DNA from: an uncultured bacterium
Lineage (GTDB): Bacteria > Zixibacteria > MSB-5A5 > UBA10806
Direction: 5' to 3'
NCBI GenBank assembly: GCA_965541585.1
Contig: CBEUCH010000015.1
Location: 22,317 to 86,316, forward strand
Length of the DNA: 64,000 nt
Positions within the stretch are counted from its first letter, which is position 1, and each line of letters starts with the position of its first letter. The position numbers are program-made. Below, piece after piece: positions 51,001-57,000 of the stretch.

Positions 51001-54000
51001 CAGATTTTGCATATTTCACTGGAGTTGACGGGATTATACGGTTGGATATGAGCGGATTTACAGATGTTTCGGATGGTGTATCTACACCGAGGGACCATGA
51101 ATTGATTTCAGTTTACCCTAATCCGTTCAATAGTTCCGCCATAGTAGATTATAATCTTCAGAAGGATTCCTTTGTAAAGATTGCCGTCTATGATATTCTT
51201 GGCCATAAATTAGAAACTTTAATAGCAAGAAAACAACCTGCAGGCAATCATAAAATAGTATGGAATGCGACAAATAAACCTTCTGGAATATATTTCATCA
51301 GAATTCAGGCTGGTGAATTCAGCGCAAACCGGAAGTTGTTACTTCTGAAATAGTCGATGTAAAAAAGAACTTGAAAGGGGAGCCCTTATTCCGGGCTCCC
51401 ATCTTTCTTGTCGTCGCTTTCCTCTTCTTTATCCCGCAAAACAAGCTTTAGTATCTTCTCCACAAGCGCCCCCACAGATTCGGCCAGTTCCTGGGCTTCT
51501 TTTTCTTTCATCTCAGCGTCCTACAGATCAGGAATCTTATCAATTCCGCCACCGCCGCCAGCAGCGCCTTTATTTTTCCCGTCATATATGAACTCCCTCC
51601 TGGAGCATTATTAGAGTCTTGAGGTCCATGGTGATCGCCGGCTCAATCCAGTCACCATTAGCAAAGGTCGCCACCTGGCGACAGACCAAGGCTGCCACCG
51701 GCAAAACGGTATAGATTATTGACCGCGCTGTGCATCTATCCTGTAACGCTTCCGTTTCGTCTACCAAGGTGGCTTCATAGGCTTTAAGGCTGGAAGGATC
51801 GCCCGGAGATGCAGTGTAGACCTGAATTACGTGAGCTGCCATGCGAGGATCAATCAGGAGCTTAACCTTTCTGTGAGACACTACAGAATTCCAAATGCGC
51901 GACCGCACATCCATTGAGTCAACGCAGGAAATTACAATATCGGCTTCCAGCTTCTGCTTAATAAATGGCCGTGTCAGTGTGTTTACCTGGATATCACTGT
52001 CAAATTGGACAAGTATCTCGGCACAGGCCACAACTTTTTTCTTCCCCAGATCTTCTTGATAGTAGAACTGGTTCGGAAGATTCTCTGGATTTACAGTATC
52101 AGGATCCATCAGGATAAGATGCCGAACCCCCATCTTACACAAAGACAAGGCAGTGAAGGATCCAACGGCTCCGCAGCCAATGATCGTCACGTATAGGTTT
52201 GCAATGCGCTCCTGATCCACAAGTTCCTGCTGGCGTATATATTTGTCTTCCATGGGTTCTCCTAGTAATCATCGAAAAGAGGCTGGCCGGATAGCTCCTC
52301 GTAATCGTACATATTGATGGACCCCTCTTCGAACGCCTCTTCCAGCTCCTCTTCTGATTTGAAATCCACGGTTGGTTGAAATCGTTTCGGAAACTTACTG
52401 ATCTTTGTCCATCTTTTGACCTTGGCCTCGAATTCCGTCGAATAAAGTTCCTCAAGCTCCTTTGAGCATGTGCAGTGGATCTGAGTGGGCACCTTATTAA
52501 GGGTCACCCGAAACGGATTGTAGATGTCTATTCGAGTAAGTAGATCTCCCCGTAGGTTCGTGACAATTGACAGCGAATACGAATCATTAGCCAGCATTGA
52601 ACAGCAGTCCTCATCAATACTTGACCAGAACGTTTTCATGCTGGAATGGCTGTGGATCCAACAGCGCAACTGTGAGGTGTCGATACCGTCAGCAGCCAGT
52701 TGGATCATTAGATTTGCGACGGCTTTATCATCCAACTCTACGTCTGCTCCGCTAACCTTTTGATCAAGCAGGTAGATCTCGGAAACCAGAAGAGCGGTGA
52801 TCCTGCCTTCATTTTTAACCTCATCAATCAATCCCAAACAGCTTACCTCATCCTGGCCAGCCATCTTGACCCAATGCCGAAGCTTCGCCCAGGCTTCGCC
52901 ATCAACGAAAACCGCGATATCAAGTGGTGACTGTTTCATTGGCGACTCCTCGGTATTTACAGTGTTCGATGTTGCAGGATGCGCAGCTTTCCTCATTAAC
53001 TTCATGACAGGATTCCTCTTTCCGGTAGAACGGGCAGGTACTGAATGAACATGTCATGCATCCCAGAGGATTCTCATCATGGCATTCCTGCAAAAGCTCA
53101 TCTCCAGGTTCACATCGATCACTGCACATCACGCATTTTGTCAAATCCATATTCTCCTGGCATTCTTCCAGAGCCCCGTCGAAGTATGGACATCCCCCGT
53201 CACTGCACTGCAAGCAGGTTTGACCATAGCTTCCACTTTCCCTACATCGTTCATACTCGTTGGATTCATCGCAATAATCTGGATCATTCCAATATTGAAT
53301 TTTTTGGTAGGGGTCGTCTTCGTTGTATTCGTGAATGAATTTATGCAGAAGTTCCAGGGCTCCGTAGATCTCAAATTCTCCGAGAAGTTTCGTTAAACCA
53401 GCCGAGACATTCCCGAGGCAAATCTCTCCATTGTCGTTGACATGAGGATGGGGATAGTTATTGACGGGATTGGTCAAGTTGCTCAATATCACTTTGCCCC
53501 TCGATAATTCCAGTTCGATCAGCAGTACTCCAATCTCGTATTTTTCGTCAGCATACCAGATATCAACCTGGTGTGTCTTGGCCCATACGTGGCGATCATC
53601 AAACCGAATCGATTGGTAGAGGCCTGGTAGCAGCTTCTTGATGTTGGTATATTCACCGATGATCTTCCTGCCCAGTGGAATACTGGGTTTTTCAAGTTGG
53701 ACCAGCAGGTGTTTGTCCAGGTTCCGTTTCCTGGCCATATCGAACATCTGTCTGCTCAGATCATCCAGAGTATACTCTGCCTGTTGGATTGACTGCTTGA
53801 GGGAGTCCTTTCTTTCGACGACTCCTGAAAGGACCAGTTCCTTCAACTGGTCCCTTTTCTTTTGATGGTATTGCCTGGCCAATACGGGGATCTCTTCTTC
53901 AAGGGTCTTGGAGATGCTTTCTAGACCGTTTTCAGCATGAGGATATGATATGATTAGTCGGAAATTCTCTGAACCGATCTTTGCGTCTTTGTCAACAAGC

Positions 54001-57000
54001 AGGATCTGAATACCTTCGAATGGGTTGGTGGGCTGGTCGGTATCGGGCAGATGTATTGCTTCTATCGGTATATTATGCGCTTGGGAATGAAATCTGACGA
54101 GCTCCTGAATTTTCTCCCAGATCAATAACATCCCCCTTTGATATGTGGATTCATGGTGAGCACATCGCCATCCTGAACGTGCGATGTGTCAAAAGCGGGA
54201 TGCCCGTTCAGCGTGATCGTCATGTGATCGCGGTTGAACCCTGAAGCCTGAATGACATGCTCAACGGTCGATCCCTCTTGTACCTCGACCTCCTTGGCCG
54301 CTTCCCCAAGCTTCAAAACCTTGACCTTCATAAATGCTCCTTTCTTTGGAATGAAAATGCCTTGCGGGCGCAAGGCTGACTAGCTAATACCAAGTTACTT
54401 ATACCATTAAAGGGATTACGGTTTATATGATAAATGGTCAGATTACCCCTTGACACCTCAAAAAACCATGCTATCTTACTTTTAAGAGCTTAAATAGGCG
54501 CGATAGTTGCAACATGACGGTAACCTAAAGGATTGTAAAAGGATTATTATTGAAAACAAATCAAAATATTAGACAATGACTAGAATGCGCGTTATTATTA
54601 ATCGTGAGATCCAAATGATCATTTACAAAGATGAAACCGAAATTTAATAGATACGGAATATGGCAATTGAATGATATCAAGATTTATTGACAAAACAGAT
54701 TGGCGACATTCTATAAGTCCCGAGAAGAAAAGGTGGATACCTGTGCACAGTTGGTTCCTACTGAATCACAGTTATGGGAAGGAGCTTGTTTCGAATATTA
54801 TTAGCGAAATTCAGATCGAAGAAAGTGCAAGAATCCTTGATCCATTTTGTGGAAGCGGAACCACACCTTTAGTATGTAAGGAAAGGAATATTCAATCAGT
54901 TGGAATTGATTTGATGCCATTGTCTATATTGGTGTCAAGGACAAAATGTAATGATTATAATCCGAGTAAACTAAATATTTTTCTTGATCAGATAATATCG
55001 AAGAAAAATAAAAGGCAAAATTATCCTCTCCCTGACATAAGCATTATTAAGAGAGCATTTACTCCACTTGCATGGCAATCTATACAATCGTTAGTGCAAA
55101 CAATAAGAGAAATCTGTAGAGGGAAATACAGGGATTTCTTTATTACTTCTTTATTATCAATAGTAAAAGACTTCGGAGCATATTCTAATGATGGAGGTTT
55201 CCCGAGATTAACTTCTAAGCCAAAATATCCAGTTGGTCATCTGAGCAAATCCTTTTATGATAGATCTGCACGGATGATAGTTGATGTCGGACAATATCCA
55301 ATCAAATCCTCAAAACTACCTATAATTTTATCTGCGGATTCCCGATTTATATTACCAAGATTTCGAAAATTCGATGCGATAATATGTTCGCCCCCGTATC
55401 CCAACAGACACGATTACAGTCGCGTTTACGCTGTTGAACTCGGAGCCGTCTTTTATAAATCTAATAATGAGCTCAAACGCCTCCGAAAAAGTATTTTTAG
55501 ATCTCACATCGAGGTCTTGCCTGACGATGCGAACTACATAGTTGACAAACTAGGTATATTAAAAGAAGTCCTTAACAGCGTGCTCACAAATCCTCGATCT
55601 GATAGAAGACTTTACAATATGCTACTTGCTTATTTTCAAGACGTAGAGCTAATGCTAAAGAATATGTGGCGAGCATTGAAGCCGGACGCCACAGCTGTTG
55701 TCGTCCTAGGTAACGTTCGCTTCGCCGGAATGGTTATACCCGTGGATGAAATAGTTGCTAGTATAAGCAATGAAATTGGATTTTACGACCAGCAAATATA
55801 TATTGTTCGCTTTAGGGGAAATAGTCCTCAACAGATGCGGGATTACGGAAGAATTCCCATTCGAGAATCAATATTGTTTTTGAGAAAAGGCCAAAGACGA
55901 TGAGTCTTAAGCATCCCAGGGCAGATAATCTTATTCTAATTCGCAATTTTATATTTGCGATATACGAAGGTATAGTAACCAAATTAGAAGATTTTAAGTT
56001 AATAAAGCCCGCCTGGAGTAGAACAAGACACTATCATTATTGGAGCGCAATTAGAGATTTGGGGTTTGCCTATTTGAAAAAAGATACTATTGTATTAACC
56101 AAGCTCGGAAAAGAACTTGCCTTATTGGTAGATCCTTTCACAATTAATTCCGTTGAGAATCTACGATCCCCAGAAATTGAGGTATTCAAAAATGCTTTCG
56201 AAGAATATAAGCCCTTACAAGAATTTCTTACATATTTTATTTCAAATGGTGAATCATTTTCCAACTTTGATCATTGGCTGAAATACTCTGGTTTCATCAT
56301 TATGACATTAAAAGACTCACACACGGGTGATGCAAAAAAATCAGCAGAATTGAAAATTCCCACTGGCAGGACTGTTCCATTAAATCCATCTCAAGTAAGA
56401 TCAATGCTATGGTCTTTGAAGCGTTGGTGCAAGCAAATTCATATTTTGGACGAAATATATTTAGAAAGTAAAACGAAATTTGGCATCAATCCCTCTATTC
56501 CTCAGAGGATATTGTTTCCGATAAAGATTAAATTGAGCGAAATGTCTCTAGAACGTTTTAAGATACTCCTTTTTTACATTATTAAAAAAATAGTAAGGGA
56601 GAGTTATATTCCTATCCCAACTTTATCATATCACTTTTGCACAAAGTATTATGCATCTTTACAAGATTTCCATCATAAATTAACAGATTTGTATAAGGAT
56701 GATCCCTTCTACTACTATCTTGAGATAAGTAGCCTTGCTGATTTCGATAAGAGAACTGGGATAATAACGGGTTATTCAAATTACCCTCAGGTTGACGGCT
56801 ATTACAGAAGTCATCTTATTTTGAGGAATAAGGAGGTTTTAGGTGAAGAATGATCACAATTTGAAAAGCAGCCATCCAGGTAAAGTAGATCAGGAGTTAG
56901 GGTACTCTCGCTTTGGATTAGCAGCCAATCCATTTCCTATGTCTGCTATTACTATGGGTATTCACAGCACGCCACTTCCTATGTATATGCCTGAGGGAGT

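Follow-up and report, generated by a model that had tools for sequence, protein, structure and literature searches.

Bil (bacterial ISG15-like) operons consist of four genes in the order Ubl-E2-JAB-E1, according to the excerpts of Chambers 2023. They comprise a type I, represented by BilABCD of Collimonas, and a type II, represented by Ensifer (CEHH, class 6c of Iyer 2006). A thioester is relayed from E1 to E2 without a separate E3, and the systems have a sparse, island-type distribution. The type I BilA has two ubiquitin-like domains and ends in Gly, the type II Ubl carries extra residues after its Gly that are cut off by the JAB, and the type II BilD combines an inactive, an active and an inserted Cys domain. 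The E2s of classes 6d and 6c are described as lacking the classical His.

The PRTRC cassette (ParB-related, ThiF-related; NCBIfam TIGR03734-03742) is carried on mobile DNA and pairs a ThiF-type E1 with small Ubl-like and JAB-like proteins. In archaeal sampylation (SAMP/UbaA/JAMM), a JAMM peptidase trims the precursor and the pathway works without an E2. The Caldiarchaeum operon (Ub-E1-E2-RING-Rpn11) encodes a separate small RING protein. Here we describe an operon that shares features with each of these systems.

Results

A predicted Ubl-E2-JAB-E1 operon

The window, which is the whole stretch of 64,000 nucleotides that was analysed, carries four intact, co-directional ORFs on the minus strand at 51582..54331, where the survey's finding had placed a Ubl-E2-JAB-E1 set. 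Their reading frames overlap or stand 8 nt apart and are translationally coupled, and all catalytic motifs are invariant. The features are as follows.

51582..52253, minus strand: minimal ThiF-type E1, 223 aa (Pfam ThiF 1.7e-29, PDB matches, alignments)
51732..51734, minus strand: Cys174 of the E1 (C-T motif), invariant in 22/22 E1s (7 cellular and 15 viral)
52262..52939, minus strand: JAB/MPN+ metallopeptidase, 225 aa, with an ATG at 52939, overlapping the E2 gene by 20 nt
52613..52654, minus strand: JAMM motif H96-S-H98-x7-S106-x2-D109 of the JAB, with upstream E31 (conservation)
52920..54125, minus strand: E2 conjugating enzyme, 401 aa, with a TTG start that overlaps the Ubl stop codon
52923..53270, minus strand: E2 residues 286-401, acidic tail made up of helices only and carrying 16 invariant Cys (alignments and AF2)
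53271..53684, minus strand: E2 residues 148-285, UBC-fold catalytic core (VIA-align, Foldseek, UBE2L3 profile match)
53418..53450, minus strand: E2 active site, H226-P-H228 then C236, HPH-x7-C-L-G-N (conservation and UBE2L3 alignment)
53691..53927, minus strand: E2 residues 67-145, single predicted helix of about 79 residues (AF2)
53946..54125, minus strand: E2 residues 1-60, N-terminal alpha/beta domain of one helix and four strands (AF2, pLDDT 86-97)
54122..54331, minus strand: Ubl precursor, 69 aa (ORF, Pfam, PDB match)
54332..54670, no strand: divergent intergenic stretch that separates the operon from a type II DNA methyltransferase gene (consensus matches only)

The E2 ORF is open further, to an ATG at 54131, and the JAB ORF to 53005. 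The Ubl gene is preceded, at a distance of 6 nt, by the ribosome site AAGGAG; the divergent region contains promoter-like hexamers and, just before this site, a GC-rich hairpin at 54359-54376, both as consensus matches only.

The Ubl, the JAB and the E1

The Ubl is a single beta-grasp protein of the SAMP2/ThiS type, with GG at residues 66-67 followed by two residues (CY). It scored against SAMP2 (9.6e-6) and ThiS (6.8e-5) in Pfam and NCBIfam scans, and against Pyrococcus SAMP2 in the PDB (5lda_B, E 3.5e-7). In 8/8 homologues the GG is invariant and the tail behind it variable.

The JAB residues E31, H96-S-H98, S106 and D109 are invariant in 26/26 sequences, and the HxH...S..D motif is kept in 15/15 viral homologues. 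Among the best 10 rows of a profile search of the PDB, 9 were Rpn11 or Rpn11-like chains (E 0.5-1.0); Rpn11 and the Rpn11-like protein of Caldiarchaeum are the best matches, albeit weak ones. The JAB of the window matched nothing at E<=1 in Pfam, PADLOC or NCBIfam; the relative in locus L026 passes Pfam Prok-JAB and JAB. The protein is predicted to be a Ubl-trimming and deconjugating enzyme.

The E1 consists of one adenylation domain and has no rhodanese, inactive domain, inserted Cys domain or CxxC zinc pairs. Its PDB matches include UBA7 (4e-11) and ThiF (7e-11), and in PADLOC it matches a Cap2-type E1-E2 model (1e-15). Cys174, the sole Cys conserved across all E1s of the family, is the candidate thioester Cys. 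The chromosomal E1s form a single clade, and diversity among the viral ones is far greater. The survey's descriptions of a 69-aa ThiS/SAMP2-like Ubl ending GG-CY, a JAB/MPN+ peptidase with HSHx7SxxD and a minimal 223-aa ThiF-type E1 were thus all recovered, as was its statement that only the E1 scores in PADLOC and only the Ubl and the E1 in Pfam; the E2 and the JAB have no match in NCBIfam either.

The best scores of the Ubl and the E1 fall on ThiS, SAMP2, ThiF and MoeB models, which would suit a role in a ThiS/MoaD-ThiF-type sulfur-carrier or cofactor pathway instead of protein tagging. However, all of these scores lie far under the equivalog cut-offs, the E1 lacks a rhodanese, and the operon always includes a JAB and an E2 whose active site is intact. 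Furthermore, no thiamine or molybdopterin genes occur nearby, and the operon is found on mobile DNA and in phages. We consider such a pathway highly improbable.

A 401-aa E2 with a cysteine-rich tail

The E2 of the window matched nothing at E<=1 in Pfam (UQ_con included), PADLOC or NCBIfam. An AF2 model built with the 28-protein family reached a pLDDT of 68.9, and one built with a deeper alignment 90.0. VIA-align placed UbcH10 first (5a31_Q, Z 8.0, rmsd 3.8, 120 residues aligned), and the best 13 rows were all E2s. A Z of 8.0 counts as middling by the tool's own note. Foldseek returned UbcH10/UbcH7 (E 5.4e-4, prob 1.00), and all of the matches listed were E2 or UBC-fold chains. Concomitantly, the family profile matched human UBE2L3 (E 0.0016), with HPH...C falling on HPN...C86. 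The active-site motif is invariant in 25/25 and 77/77 aligned sequences, and it is kept in 135/149 top representatives and in 19/19 viral E2 ORFs. Both the UBC/UEV-fold core with its HPH...C motif and the invariance of H226-P227-H228, C236 and the Cys array, as first proposed, were reproduced. Because HPH-x7-C falls on the UBE2L3 active site and a model of pLDDT 90 matches eukaryotic E2s, the sequence and the model firmly identify the 401-aa protein as a predicted E2 with a Cys-rich tail.

The significant sequence and fold matches are to canonical eukaryotic E2s only. With UBE2L3/UbcH7 and UBE2C/UbcH10 the protein shares HPN/HPH, a Cys 8-10 residues further on, hydrophobic-G/x-N/I and the UBC fold. 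In contrast to these enzymes, its UBC core is set within a 401-aa multidomain prokaryotic or viral protein outside Pfam UQ_con, and it is partnered by a ThiS-like Ubl and an E1 of ThiF size.

The columns of the N-terminal domain show no conservation in the 77-sequence alignment or among distant relatives; this domain may serve in target recognition. Coiled-coil proteins were drawn in when the E2 profile was compared with the PDB, and the long helix would act as a coiled-coil stalk or an oligomerisation element.

The 16 tail Cys can be read as four repeats of C-x7-9-C-x2-C-x3-4-C. The AF2 pLDDT is 66-91 at residues 281-390; over the last stretch of the chain it drops to 60 and 36. No RING match was found in Pfam at E<=1. 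The only PDB sequence pulled out by the tail is the small subunit of 4-hydroxyphenylacetate decarboxylase, with which it shares five equally spaced Cys (C-x8-C-x2-C-x3-C-x9-C), although the match is not significant (best E 0.33, range 0.33 to 4). This subunit holds two [4Fe-4S] clusters, and its fold is called HiPIP-like in the excerpt of PMC13450708 (section 4.2 for the clusters), whereas the E2 tail is predicted to be all-helical. The four-fold Cys4 tail is a putative metal-binding module, for zinc or an iron-sulfur cluster.

The operon lies on a tRNA-Leu island

The left end of the island is anchored as follows.

18084..19353, no strand: tRNA-Leu(taa) at 18084-18171 and a tyrosine integrase at 18280-19353 on the minus strand (annotation)

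The genes of the island within the window include the integrase, an excisionase-type HTH gene, a CARF-sigma54 protein, type I R-M, a large helicase and a D5-type primase-helicase; further defence genes in the window are PDC-S06, PDC-S14 and the type II MTase. The island GC is below that of the left flank. The integrase, excisionase, CARF-sigma54, type I R-M and helicase genes of the proposed tRNA-Leu defence island were all located. As to its proposed size of 46 kb, the left anchor stands, but the right end is not seen: 46 kb is a minimum, because the contig stops at window position 64000 and no second copy of the tRNA-Leu 3′ end occurs within the window.

In other genomes, one operon copy has a complete Kiwa directly upstream (L004; KwaA 1.4e-91, KwaB 5.5e-129). 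Others lie near TIR and PD-T7-4-like genes (L014), near SIR2, PDC-S14 and a type I S subunit (L017), or near a toxin-immunity pair and HerA-like and Leo-like genes (L021). Against a defence role counts one locus (L016) with housekeeping genes upstream of the operon.

A large family carried by phages

The E2 family had been described as rare, with 28 proteins. The word-indexed search again gave 28, but the rarity did not hold: an exhaustive HMM search found 2077 cluster representatives at E<=1e-3, of which 514 reach <=1e-10 and 55 reach <=1e-30. Among the representatives scanned, none matched an E2 model from Pfam, NCBIfam, PADLOC or PHROGs. The family is thus large and listed in none of these four libraries. 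Wherever the DNA extends far enough, the genes stand in the order Ubl-E2-JAB-E1, even at the lowest E2 identity of 29% (L021), and broken operon copies exist. Chromosomal copies are sporadic (6/285 genomes of the phylum), and the operon is absent from two genomes of the same genus.

The E2-JAB-E1 block, with intact motifs, is present in 16/18 IMG/VR viral contigs picked by a motif scan. Phage replication, recombination and packaging genes surround it: UvsX-like, ParB-like, SbcCD, clamp, Sak4, SSB, small terminase, endonuclease VII and RNA ligase genes. SbcD and SbcC flank the operon in one viral locus (L038), and E2 paralogues are multiplied in two others (L030 and L035). One carrier (G690) is a complete genome of 172.7 kb that has terminal repeats and a completeness of 100%. 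The nearest ESM Atlas clusters are 73% and 100% viral, taxa that rest on few labelled members.

The presence of the family on large phages weakens a simple reading as host anti-phage defence. The viral carriage, together with the integrase, excisionase and D5-type primase-helicase of the window island, would also fit a family that is primarily a phage or mobile-element tool and tags host proteins (defence, replication/repair) or the element's own proteins, for take-over or counter-defence, the island copy serving the island life cycle. However, the chromosomal clade adjoins defence genes in at least five contexts, and three E2 queries found no match in 50,697 GenBank phage records. Moreover, viral carriage is compatible with defence because systems that act against rival phages occur on phages as well. 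We regard a tool of this kind as possible, though somewhat doubtful.

Relationship to Bil and PRTRC

In gene content and order the operon equals Bil as given in the excerpts of Chambers 2023; the survey's finding had stated the equal gene content. Against these descriptions, the present Ubl resembles that of type II in its two residues after GG and differs from BilA as a single 69-aa SAMP2-like beta-grasp; the E1 is one 223-aa domain with a C-T Cys, unlike BilD; and the E2 keeps the classical His, HPH preceding its Cys, and adds the N-terminal domain, the long helix and the 16-Cys tail. The predicted E1-to-E2 relay without a separate E3 and the sparse, island-type distribution are shared. The possibility, raised earlier, of a divergent or already catalogued Bil subtype was not supported by the features tested, namely the single-domain Ubl with a C-terminal extension, the HPH and the E1 architecture, which differ from Bil as described above.

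PRTRC shares the mobile carriage and the type of partners. The E1 weakly matches PRTRC_ThiF (3.1e-9), the JAB of locus L021 weakly matches PRTRC_A (8.5e-4), and one phage lineage (L027) has a ParB-like gene close to the operon. However, no PRTRC model reaches its cut-off in any protein tested: PRTRC_ThiF, with a cut-off of 144.75 bits, gives 36.5 bits for the E1 and 34.8-62.4 bits in 5 viral records, and PRTRC_B matches neither the window E2 nor anything in 5 viral records. A Pfam scan of ORFs in window 15570-64000 turned up no ParB-like gene. PADLOC 2.0.0, which we take to contain Bil models, yielded no match for the Ubl, the E2 or the JAB. It is unlikely that the operon is a catalogued system (Bil type I/II or PRTRC) altered by sequence drift only. 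It would work like Bil, and it lacks the tested membership features of Bil types I and II and of PRTRC. The Ubl, nearest to SAMP2, recalls sampylation, yet the operon has an E2; and no small RING protein was found in it, in contrast to the Caldiarchaeum operon.

Discussion

By analogy with BilC, the JAB would cut off the two residues behind the Gly-Gly of the Ubl. The E1, probably a homodimer like ThiF/UBA5, would then adenylate the Ubl C-terminus and load it as a thioester on Cys174, from which the Ubl would move on to Cys236 in the HPH...C active site of the UBC-fold E2. The E2 may conjugate the Ubl to a target protein with no separate E3 involved, its variable N-terminal domain, helical stalk and four-fold Cys4 tail providing target choice or regulation, and the JAB may also take the tag off again. 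On the tRNA-Leu island, the neighbouring genes suggest a part in conflict between mobile elements as the most likely role, in which a protein of an invading phage would be tagged and the phage's assembly or function spoiled, as in Bil.

The viral contigs and the mostly viral Atlas clusters suggest that the family may serve phages, not hosts. Overall, we give about an even chance to the operon being a predicted complete and active Ubl-conjugation cascade, of a family unlisted in the four libraries, that travels as cargo on mobile DNA and would have a role in mobile-element conflict, Bil-like but not Bil.

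Organization of the operon

The four open reading frames reported by the survey are real and lie on the minus strand between 51582 and 54331:

54122-54331, minus strand: Ubl, 69 aa
52920-54125, minus strand: E2, 401 aa; TTG start overlapping the Ubl stop, frame open up to an ATG at 54131
52262-52939, minus strand: JAB peptidase; ATG 20 nt within the E2 gene, frame reaching 53005
51582-52253, minus strand: E1, 223 aa; begins 8 nt past the JAB stop

An AAGGAG ribosome site precedes Ubl, and the tight packing of the four genes indicates a single, translationally coupled operon. The G+C content is 0.468 in the 2-kb bin 52001-54000, which holds most of the operon, versus 0.422 and 0.389 in the adjoining bins. 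The operon strand also has a GC-rich hairpin with a 7-bp stem (54359-54376), followed by a T-rich stretch, immediately before the Ubl ribosome site; this hairpin could serve as an attenuator or operator. Two to three genes past E1, an XRE-type HTH protein of 112 aa is encoded both in the window (48661-48999, minus strand) and in the related locus L004 (13205-13555). The two copies are 73% identical to each other and match the PADLOC 'control protein' and capH-type models (1.5e-14); this protein may regulate the operon or a neighbouring gene.

The E2 has a UBC fold and a classical active site

A word-indexed search again gave the 28 E2 relatives of the survey, 271 to 402 aa long, and across the 25 aligned family members neither H226-P-H228 nor C236 nor the tail cysteines vary. 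The profile of these 25 members, compared with the PDB, retrieved human UBE2L3 with an E value of 0.0016 over residues 144-243. In this alignment the HPH...GEIC segment falls on HPNIDEKGQVC of UBE2L3, the site of the catalytic Cys. When distant relatives were included, HPH226-228 and C236 remained invariant in 77/77 sequences. The AF2 model built on the 25-sequence alignment reached a pLDDT of 68.9 with the tail below 50, much as in the survey, and the 77-sequence alignment gave 90.0, with 66-91 in the tail across residues 281-390. The latter model has four parts, namely an alpha/beta domain (residues 1-60), a helix of about 79 residues (67-145), the UBC core (148-285) and an all-helical tail. 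Foldseek placed UbcH10 and UbcH7 on top (E 5.4e-4, prob 1.00), and all of the matches listed were E2 or UBC-fold chains. Furthermore, VIA-align superimposed UbcH10 with a Z score of 8.0 (rmsd 3.8, 120 residues aligned), and its top 13 rows were all E2s. The protein thus carries the features of the UBC/E2 superfamily, an HPN-type motif before the catalytic Cys and the UBC fold, and its assignment as an E2 with a classical active site is now strong.

Whole-model structure searches returned rows of E2 and coiled-coil proteins, with no lead for the parts outside the core. The bacterial E2s of Bil, Cap2 and Bub were absent from the fold-search lists and from the PDB profile searches, which is weak negative evidence. 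The survey's Pfam and PADLOC results were likewise reproduced. Only Ubl and E1 are matched, in PADLOC only E1 (Cap2-type E1-E2 models, 1e-15); neither E2 nor the JAB has a match at E<=1 in Pfam, PADLOC or NCBIfam, which for E2 includes the Pfam models UQ_con and Prok-E2.

JAB, E1 and Ubl retain conserved motifs

A word search found 33 relatives of the JAB protein. The residues E31, H96-S-H98, S106 and D109 (E...HxH-x7-S-x2-D) are invariant in 26/26 sequences, and the motif is kept in all 15 viral homologues. Nine of the top ten rows of the PDB profile search were Rpn11 or a Caldiarchaeum Rpn11-like protein, with E values of 0.5-1.0 only. With the Pfam Prok-JAB/JAB models, the homologue of the viral locus L026 scored above the cut-offs (28.1 > 25, 26.5 > 22.5), and that of the distant chromosomal locus L021 reached 24.4 versus 25.

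E1 consists of a single ThiF domain, residues 13-193 (PF00899, 103.1 bits versus a threshold of 28.1; ThiF 1.7e-29). G26, G28 and G31 of the nucleotide-binding GxGxxG loop, D50, D112 and R117 are invariant in 22/22 sequences (7 cellular, 15 viral). C174, the candidate thioester Cys, is the only Cys invariant throughout the same set and, judged from the alignment, probably lies in the crossover loop; no CxxC zinc pair was found in these 22 E1s.

Ubl has a single beta-grasp and matches Pyrococcus SAMP2 in the PDB (E 3.5e-7) as well as the Pfam families SAMP2 (9.6e-6) and ThiS (6.8e-5). Its GG is invariant in 8/8 homologues and is followed by two, in one case seven, variable residues, and a trimming step is therefore needed. 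NCBIfam gave sub-threshold matches to ThiS, ThiF and MoeB. A role of the operon in thiamine or molybdopterin synthesis was considered and rejected.

The Cys-rich tail of the E2 is a modular repeat

Sixteen Cys are invariant down to the tail of L021, which is 26% identical to that of the window E2. Their spacing gives four C-x7-9-C-x2-C-x3-4-C repeats, the first of which has a Pro behind its fourth Cys, and the tail itself is acidic and predicted to be helical. Among the best-listed representatives of the family, an E2 has between 0 and 5 C-x2-C-x3-5-C units downstream of its active site, which shows that the tail is a modular, optional repeat. The PDB yielded only the small subunit of 4-hydroxyphenylacetate decarboxylase, and this match fell short of significance (E 4 for the lone sequence as query, 0.33 for the profile of the tail). 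The spacing of five Cys is common to the two proteins. This subunit carries two [4Fe-4S] clusters, according to a review (PMC13450708, section 4.2). No zinc-finger, ferredoxin or other Pfam family matched the tail, and the tail by itself drew no usable hit from the ESM Atlas. Iron-sulfur sites more often show a pattern of three Cys plus one with a Pro behind it, and the Cys4 modules of ubiquitin enzymes usually bind zinc. We regard the tail as a candidate metal-binding module, with zinc and iron-sulfur about equally probable. To our knowledge, a repeat metal-binding tail has no counterpart among known E2s.

The E2 family is large

The survey had described the E2 family as rare, a view that did not survive when the 25-sequence profile was run exhaustively, as an HMM, against 1.84 billion cluster representatives. 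This search yielded 2077 representatives at E<=1e-3, 514 at E<=1e-10 and 55 at E<=1e-30. The motif H[PD][HN]-x4-10-C-x-G is kept in 135 of the 149 best-listed representatives of these 2077 (query excluded). Among the matches listed, 52 long relatives have at least 12 Cys in their last 130 residues, and another 52 have at most six and end just past the E2 core. No E2-type match was obtained with Pfam for 50 relatives or for 18 viral E2s, with NCBIfam for 35 relatives or with PHROGs for 25. The few named members of the clusters come from MAGs of Zixibacteria, Parcubacteria and Eisenbacteria. The operon belongs to a large family that counts 514 or more sequence clusters at E<=1e-10, is unlisted in the four libraries searched and occurs mainly in uncultivated bacteria and large phages. 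Neither this E2 family nor a phage-borne E1-E2-JAB-Ubl operon was described in the literature that we searched, which did not include the Bil supplementary operon tables or Burroughs 2011/2012, where a prior listing is possible.

One 90%-identity cluster (P0062, P0211-P0214), a tailed E2 of 445 aa, has four members on four contigs of 9-38 kb in a single NCBI MAG, which suggests a multi-copy or strain-variable element.

Chromosomal copies keep the gene order and lie among defence genes

The order Ubl-E2-JAB-E1 is kept in all related loci with enough DNA (L002-L004, L006-L009, L013, L017-L019 and L021), including the distant L021, whose E2 is 29% identical and 473 aa long. In L022 (E2 34% identical), truncated by the contig end, E2-JAB-E1 is retained. 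The E2 gene is split in L003 (8001-9148), a locus that recurs as L008 and L019. In the genome G245 (L009, L011, L012) it carries a stop or occurs as fragments, and a second, fragmented copy is present. Ubl, JAB and E1 are intact where E2 is split or stop-bearing. The operon is matched in 6/285 genomes of the window's phylum and in neither of two same-genus genomes. Among 401 genomes of the phylum to which the MAG with L001 belongs, only that MAG itself matched, and the 2-kb contig of L001 may be mis-binned.

Genes beside the chromosomal copies

Window island: tRNA-Leu and integrase at the start; excisionase-type HTH, CARF-sigma54 protein, D5-type primase-helicase; type I R-M, PDC-S06, PDC-S14, large helicase; type II methyltransferase divergently upstream of the operon
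L003: integrase, transposase
L004: complete Kiwa (KwaA 1.4e-91, KwaB 5.5e-129)
L014: TIR protein, PD-T7-4-like protein, 1200-aa AAA_22 protein
L016: housekeeping genes upstream
L017: SIR2-like protein, PDC-S14, type I S subunit
L021: colicin-DNase/SUKH pair, HerA-like ATPase, Leo-like dynamin

Such neighbourhoods are typical of defence or conflict cargo. The window island is left without a defined far end, since the contig stops at position 64000 and the window shows no second copy of the tRNA-Leu 3' end (18144-18170).

Divergent from the operon, on the plus strand (54671-60018), are co-directional, overlapping genes for a type II DNA methyltransferase (PADLOC 7e-57), a 317-aa unknown protein, a 457-aa AAA_22 protein, a 276-aa unknown protein and an ADP-ribosylglycohydrolase, which may constitute a further, unclassified defence module. 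A Por_Secre_tail type IX secretion cargo protein adjoins the operon in the window (49098-51353, plus strand), in L003 (10725-11042), in L004 (10770-12110) and in L002 (5884-7473); the N-terminal parts of the four proteins differ. This neighbour is absent from L017 and L018, and because the genome has 147 Por_Secre_tail matches, its adjacency may reflect chance or shared locus ancestry. A functional link between the operon and type IX secretion cargo was dropped on these grounds.

Intact copies are carried by large phages

In the ESM Atlas, the clusters nearest to the whole E2 are mostly viral by label: viruses make up 73% of rank 1 (score 0.93, 472 aa, 70 members) and 100% of rank 3. Searched as a degenerate DNA pattern, the active site turned up at 18 places in IMG/VR. 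At 16 of them a local profile search confirmed a true E2 (E 4e-57 to 7e-20) with JAB and E1 behind it (E 1e-72 to 5e-36), and an upstream Ubl was detectable in seven viral loci. The viral copies are intact, with 19/19 E2 frames, 15/15 JABs and the GG ends of Ubl. Six of the viral contigs measure 148-183 kb. L034 comes from a record with terminal repeats and a completeness rating of 100%, and its E2 is the only one among these viral E2s with a Cys tail.

Genes beside the phage-borne copies

L026: small terminase, Sak4, SSB
L027: UvsX-like recombinase, phrog_8638 ATPase, ParB-like
L035: endonuclease VII, lytic tail/endolysin domain
L036: RNA ligase
L038 (85-kb phage contig), 2698-10046: Ubl-E2-JAB-E1 between SbcD-like and SbcC-like genes; RuvC and sliding clamp nearby

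The E1 of L038 is longer (378 aa). Several E2 paralogues surround one JAB-E1 pair in the phage contigs L030 (4634-9420) and L035 (7332-8868); two of the three E2 frames of L030 match the E2 profile twice, as tandem E2-like domains.

Only the degenerate active-site pattern found the viral loci. A scan of viral contigs with the A1 alignment gave nothing, and locus scans with single proteins were empty for P0215 (viral and metagenome contigs) and for P0071 and P0137 (viral contigs). A tblastn search of 50,697 GenBank phage records with three E2 queries gave no match. Sequences 24-27% identical to E1 are present in 46 crAss-like records. In one of them, that of the culturable Bacteroides phage PhiCrAssBcn22 (L044; OQ221557.1, 2307-4648), the gene directly upstream of that for a 367-aa E1-like protein ('thiamine biosynthesis protein' in the annotation) encodes a JAB-like protein whose JAMM motif is very similar, and no E2 of the window family was detected beside this pair.

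In the E1 tree, the six Zixibacteria-type chromosomal E1s form one clade (100/100) among far more diverse viral branches; the tree is unrooted and therefore shows no direction of transfer. With intact copies in phages, the operon could also be read as a tool of phages or mobile elements for take-over or counter-defence, a reading that we hold to be possible, if rather doubtful. For the island copy, Bil-like defence is the reading that we favour, although we put its chances no higher than even.

Comparison with known conjugation systems

The survey had called the operon Bil-like. The gene set, the order Ubl-E2-JAB-E1 and the logic are indeed common to both. However, the Ubl, E2 and E1 proteins depart from the Bil types in the features compared. 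BilA of type I has two Ub-like domains and ends in Gly, whereas the window Ubl is a single beta-grasp of 69 aa ending in GG plus two residues. The E2 of Iyer class 6d, a class that may be equivalent to type I Bil or to PRTRC, has no classical His ahead of the Cys and an invariant one behind it. In contrast, the window E2 has the invariant HPH before, and after C236 the 77-sequence alignment shows no His that is invariant. Class 6c E2s, too, are without the classical His, unlike the window E2. BilD of type II (CEHH/6c) combines an inactive and an active adenylation domain with an inserted Cys domain and a Zn site, whereas the window E1 has one ThiF domain in 223 aa. 'Bil-like' thus holds only as an analogy, the Bil features compared being absent apart from the gene set and order.

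No NCBIfam model of the PRTRC cassette reached its cut-off. PRTRC_ThiF scored 36.5 bits on the window E1 versus a cut-off of 144.75, and no PRTRC model matched the window Ubl, E2 or JAB at E<=1. Five viral relatives gave 34.8-62.4 bits with PRTRC_ThiF, and PRTRC_B was found in 0/5 records. We conclude that this is a prokaryotic ubiquitin-like conjugation operon distinguished by a eukaryote-type E2 active site, a minimal E1, a repeat Cys4 tail and heavy phage carriage. Among the prokaryotic systems compared, its E2 comes nearest to the canonical eukaryotic active site.

Proposed mechanism and role

Ubl, E2, JAB and E1 occur together, in strict order, across wide divergence, and all catalytic motifs are intact. 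In the mechanism that we propose, JAB would unmask the GG of Ubl, and E1 would adenylate Ubl and carry it on C174. E2 would then accept it on C236 and conjugate it to targets, which would be chosen via the variable N-terminal domain, the stalk and the putative metal-binding tail. JAB would also reverse the tag. The biological role is probably a conflict function on mobile DNA.

A bolder reading, which we consider improbable as a whole, takes the operon as the cellular tip of a large family of ubiquitin-type cascades, most of them phage-borne. The E2 would keep the eukaryote-type HPN...Cys site that Bil, CBASS Cap2 and Bub lost or altered, and in the tailed branch it would bind up to four iron-sulfur clusters, making conjugation sensitive to redox state or iron. 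If this were true, phages would act as a reservoir of near-eukaryotic-type E2s and possibly also as their vehicle, and the window E2 would be the first metal-cluster-gated E2.

Work on bacterial Ubl conjugation is recent, Bil, type II CBASS and Bub having reportedly all been characterised since 2022. The operon, in which an E2 of this type would work with the smallest kind of E1, could provide a minimal, tractable E1-E2-Ubl-DUB set for biochemistry. It could also be used to test whether phages turn Ubl tagging on their hosts or rivals, and could inform the origin of eukaryotic-type E2s.
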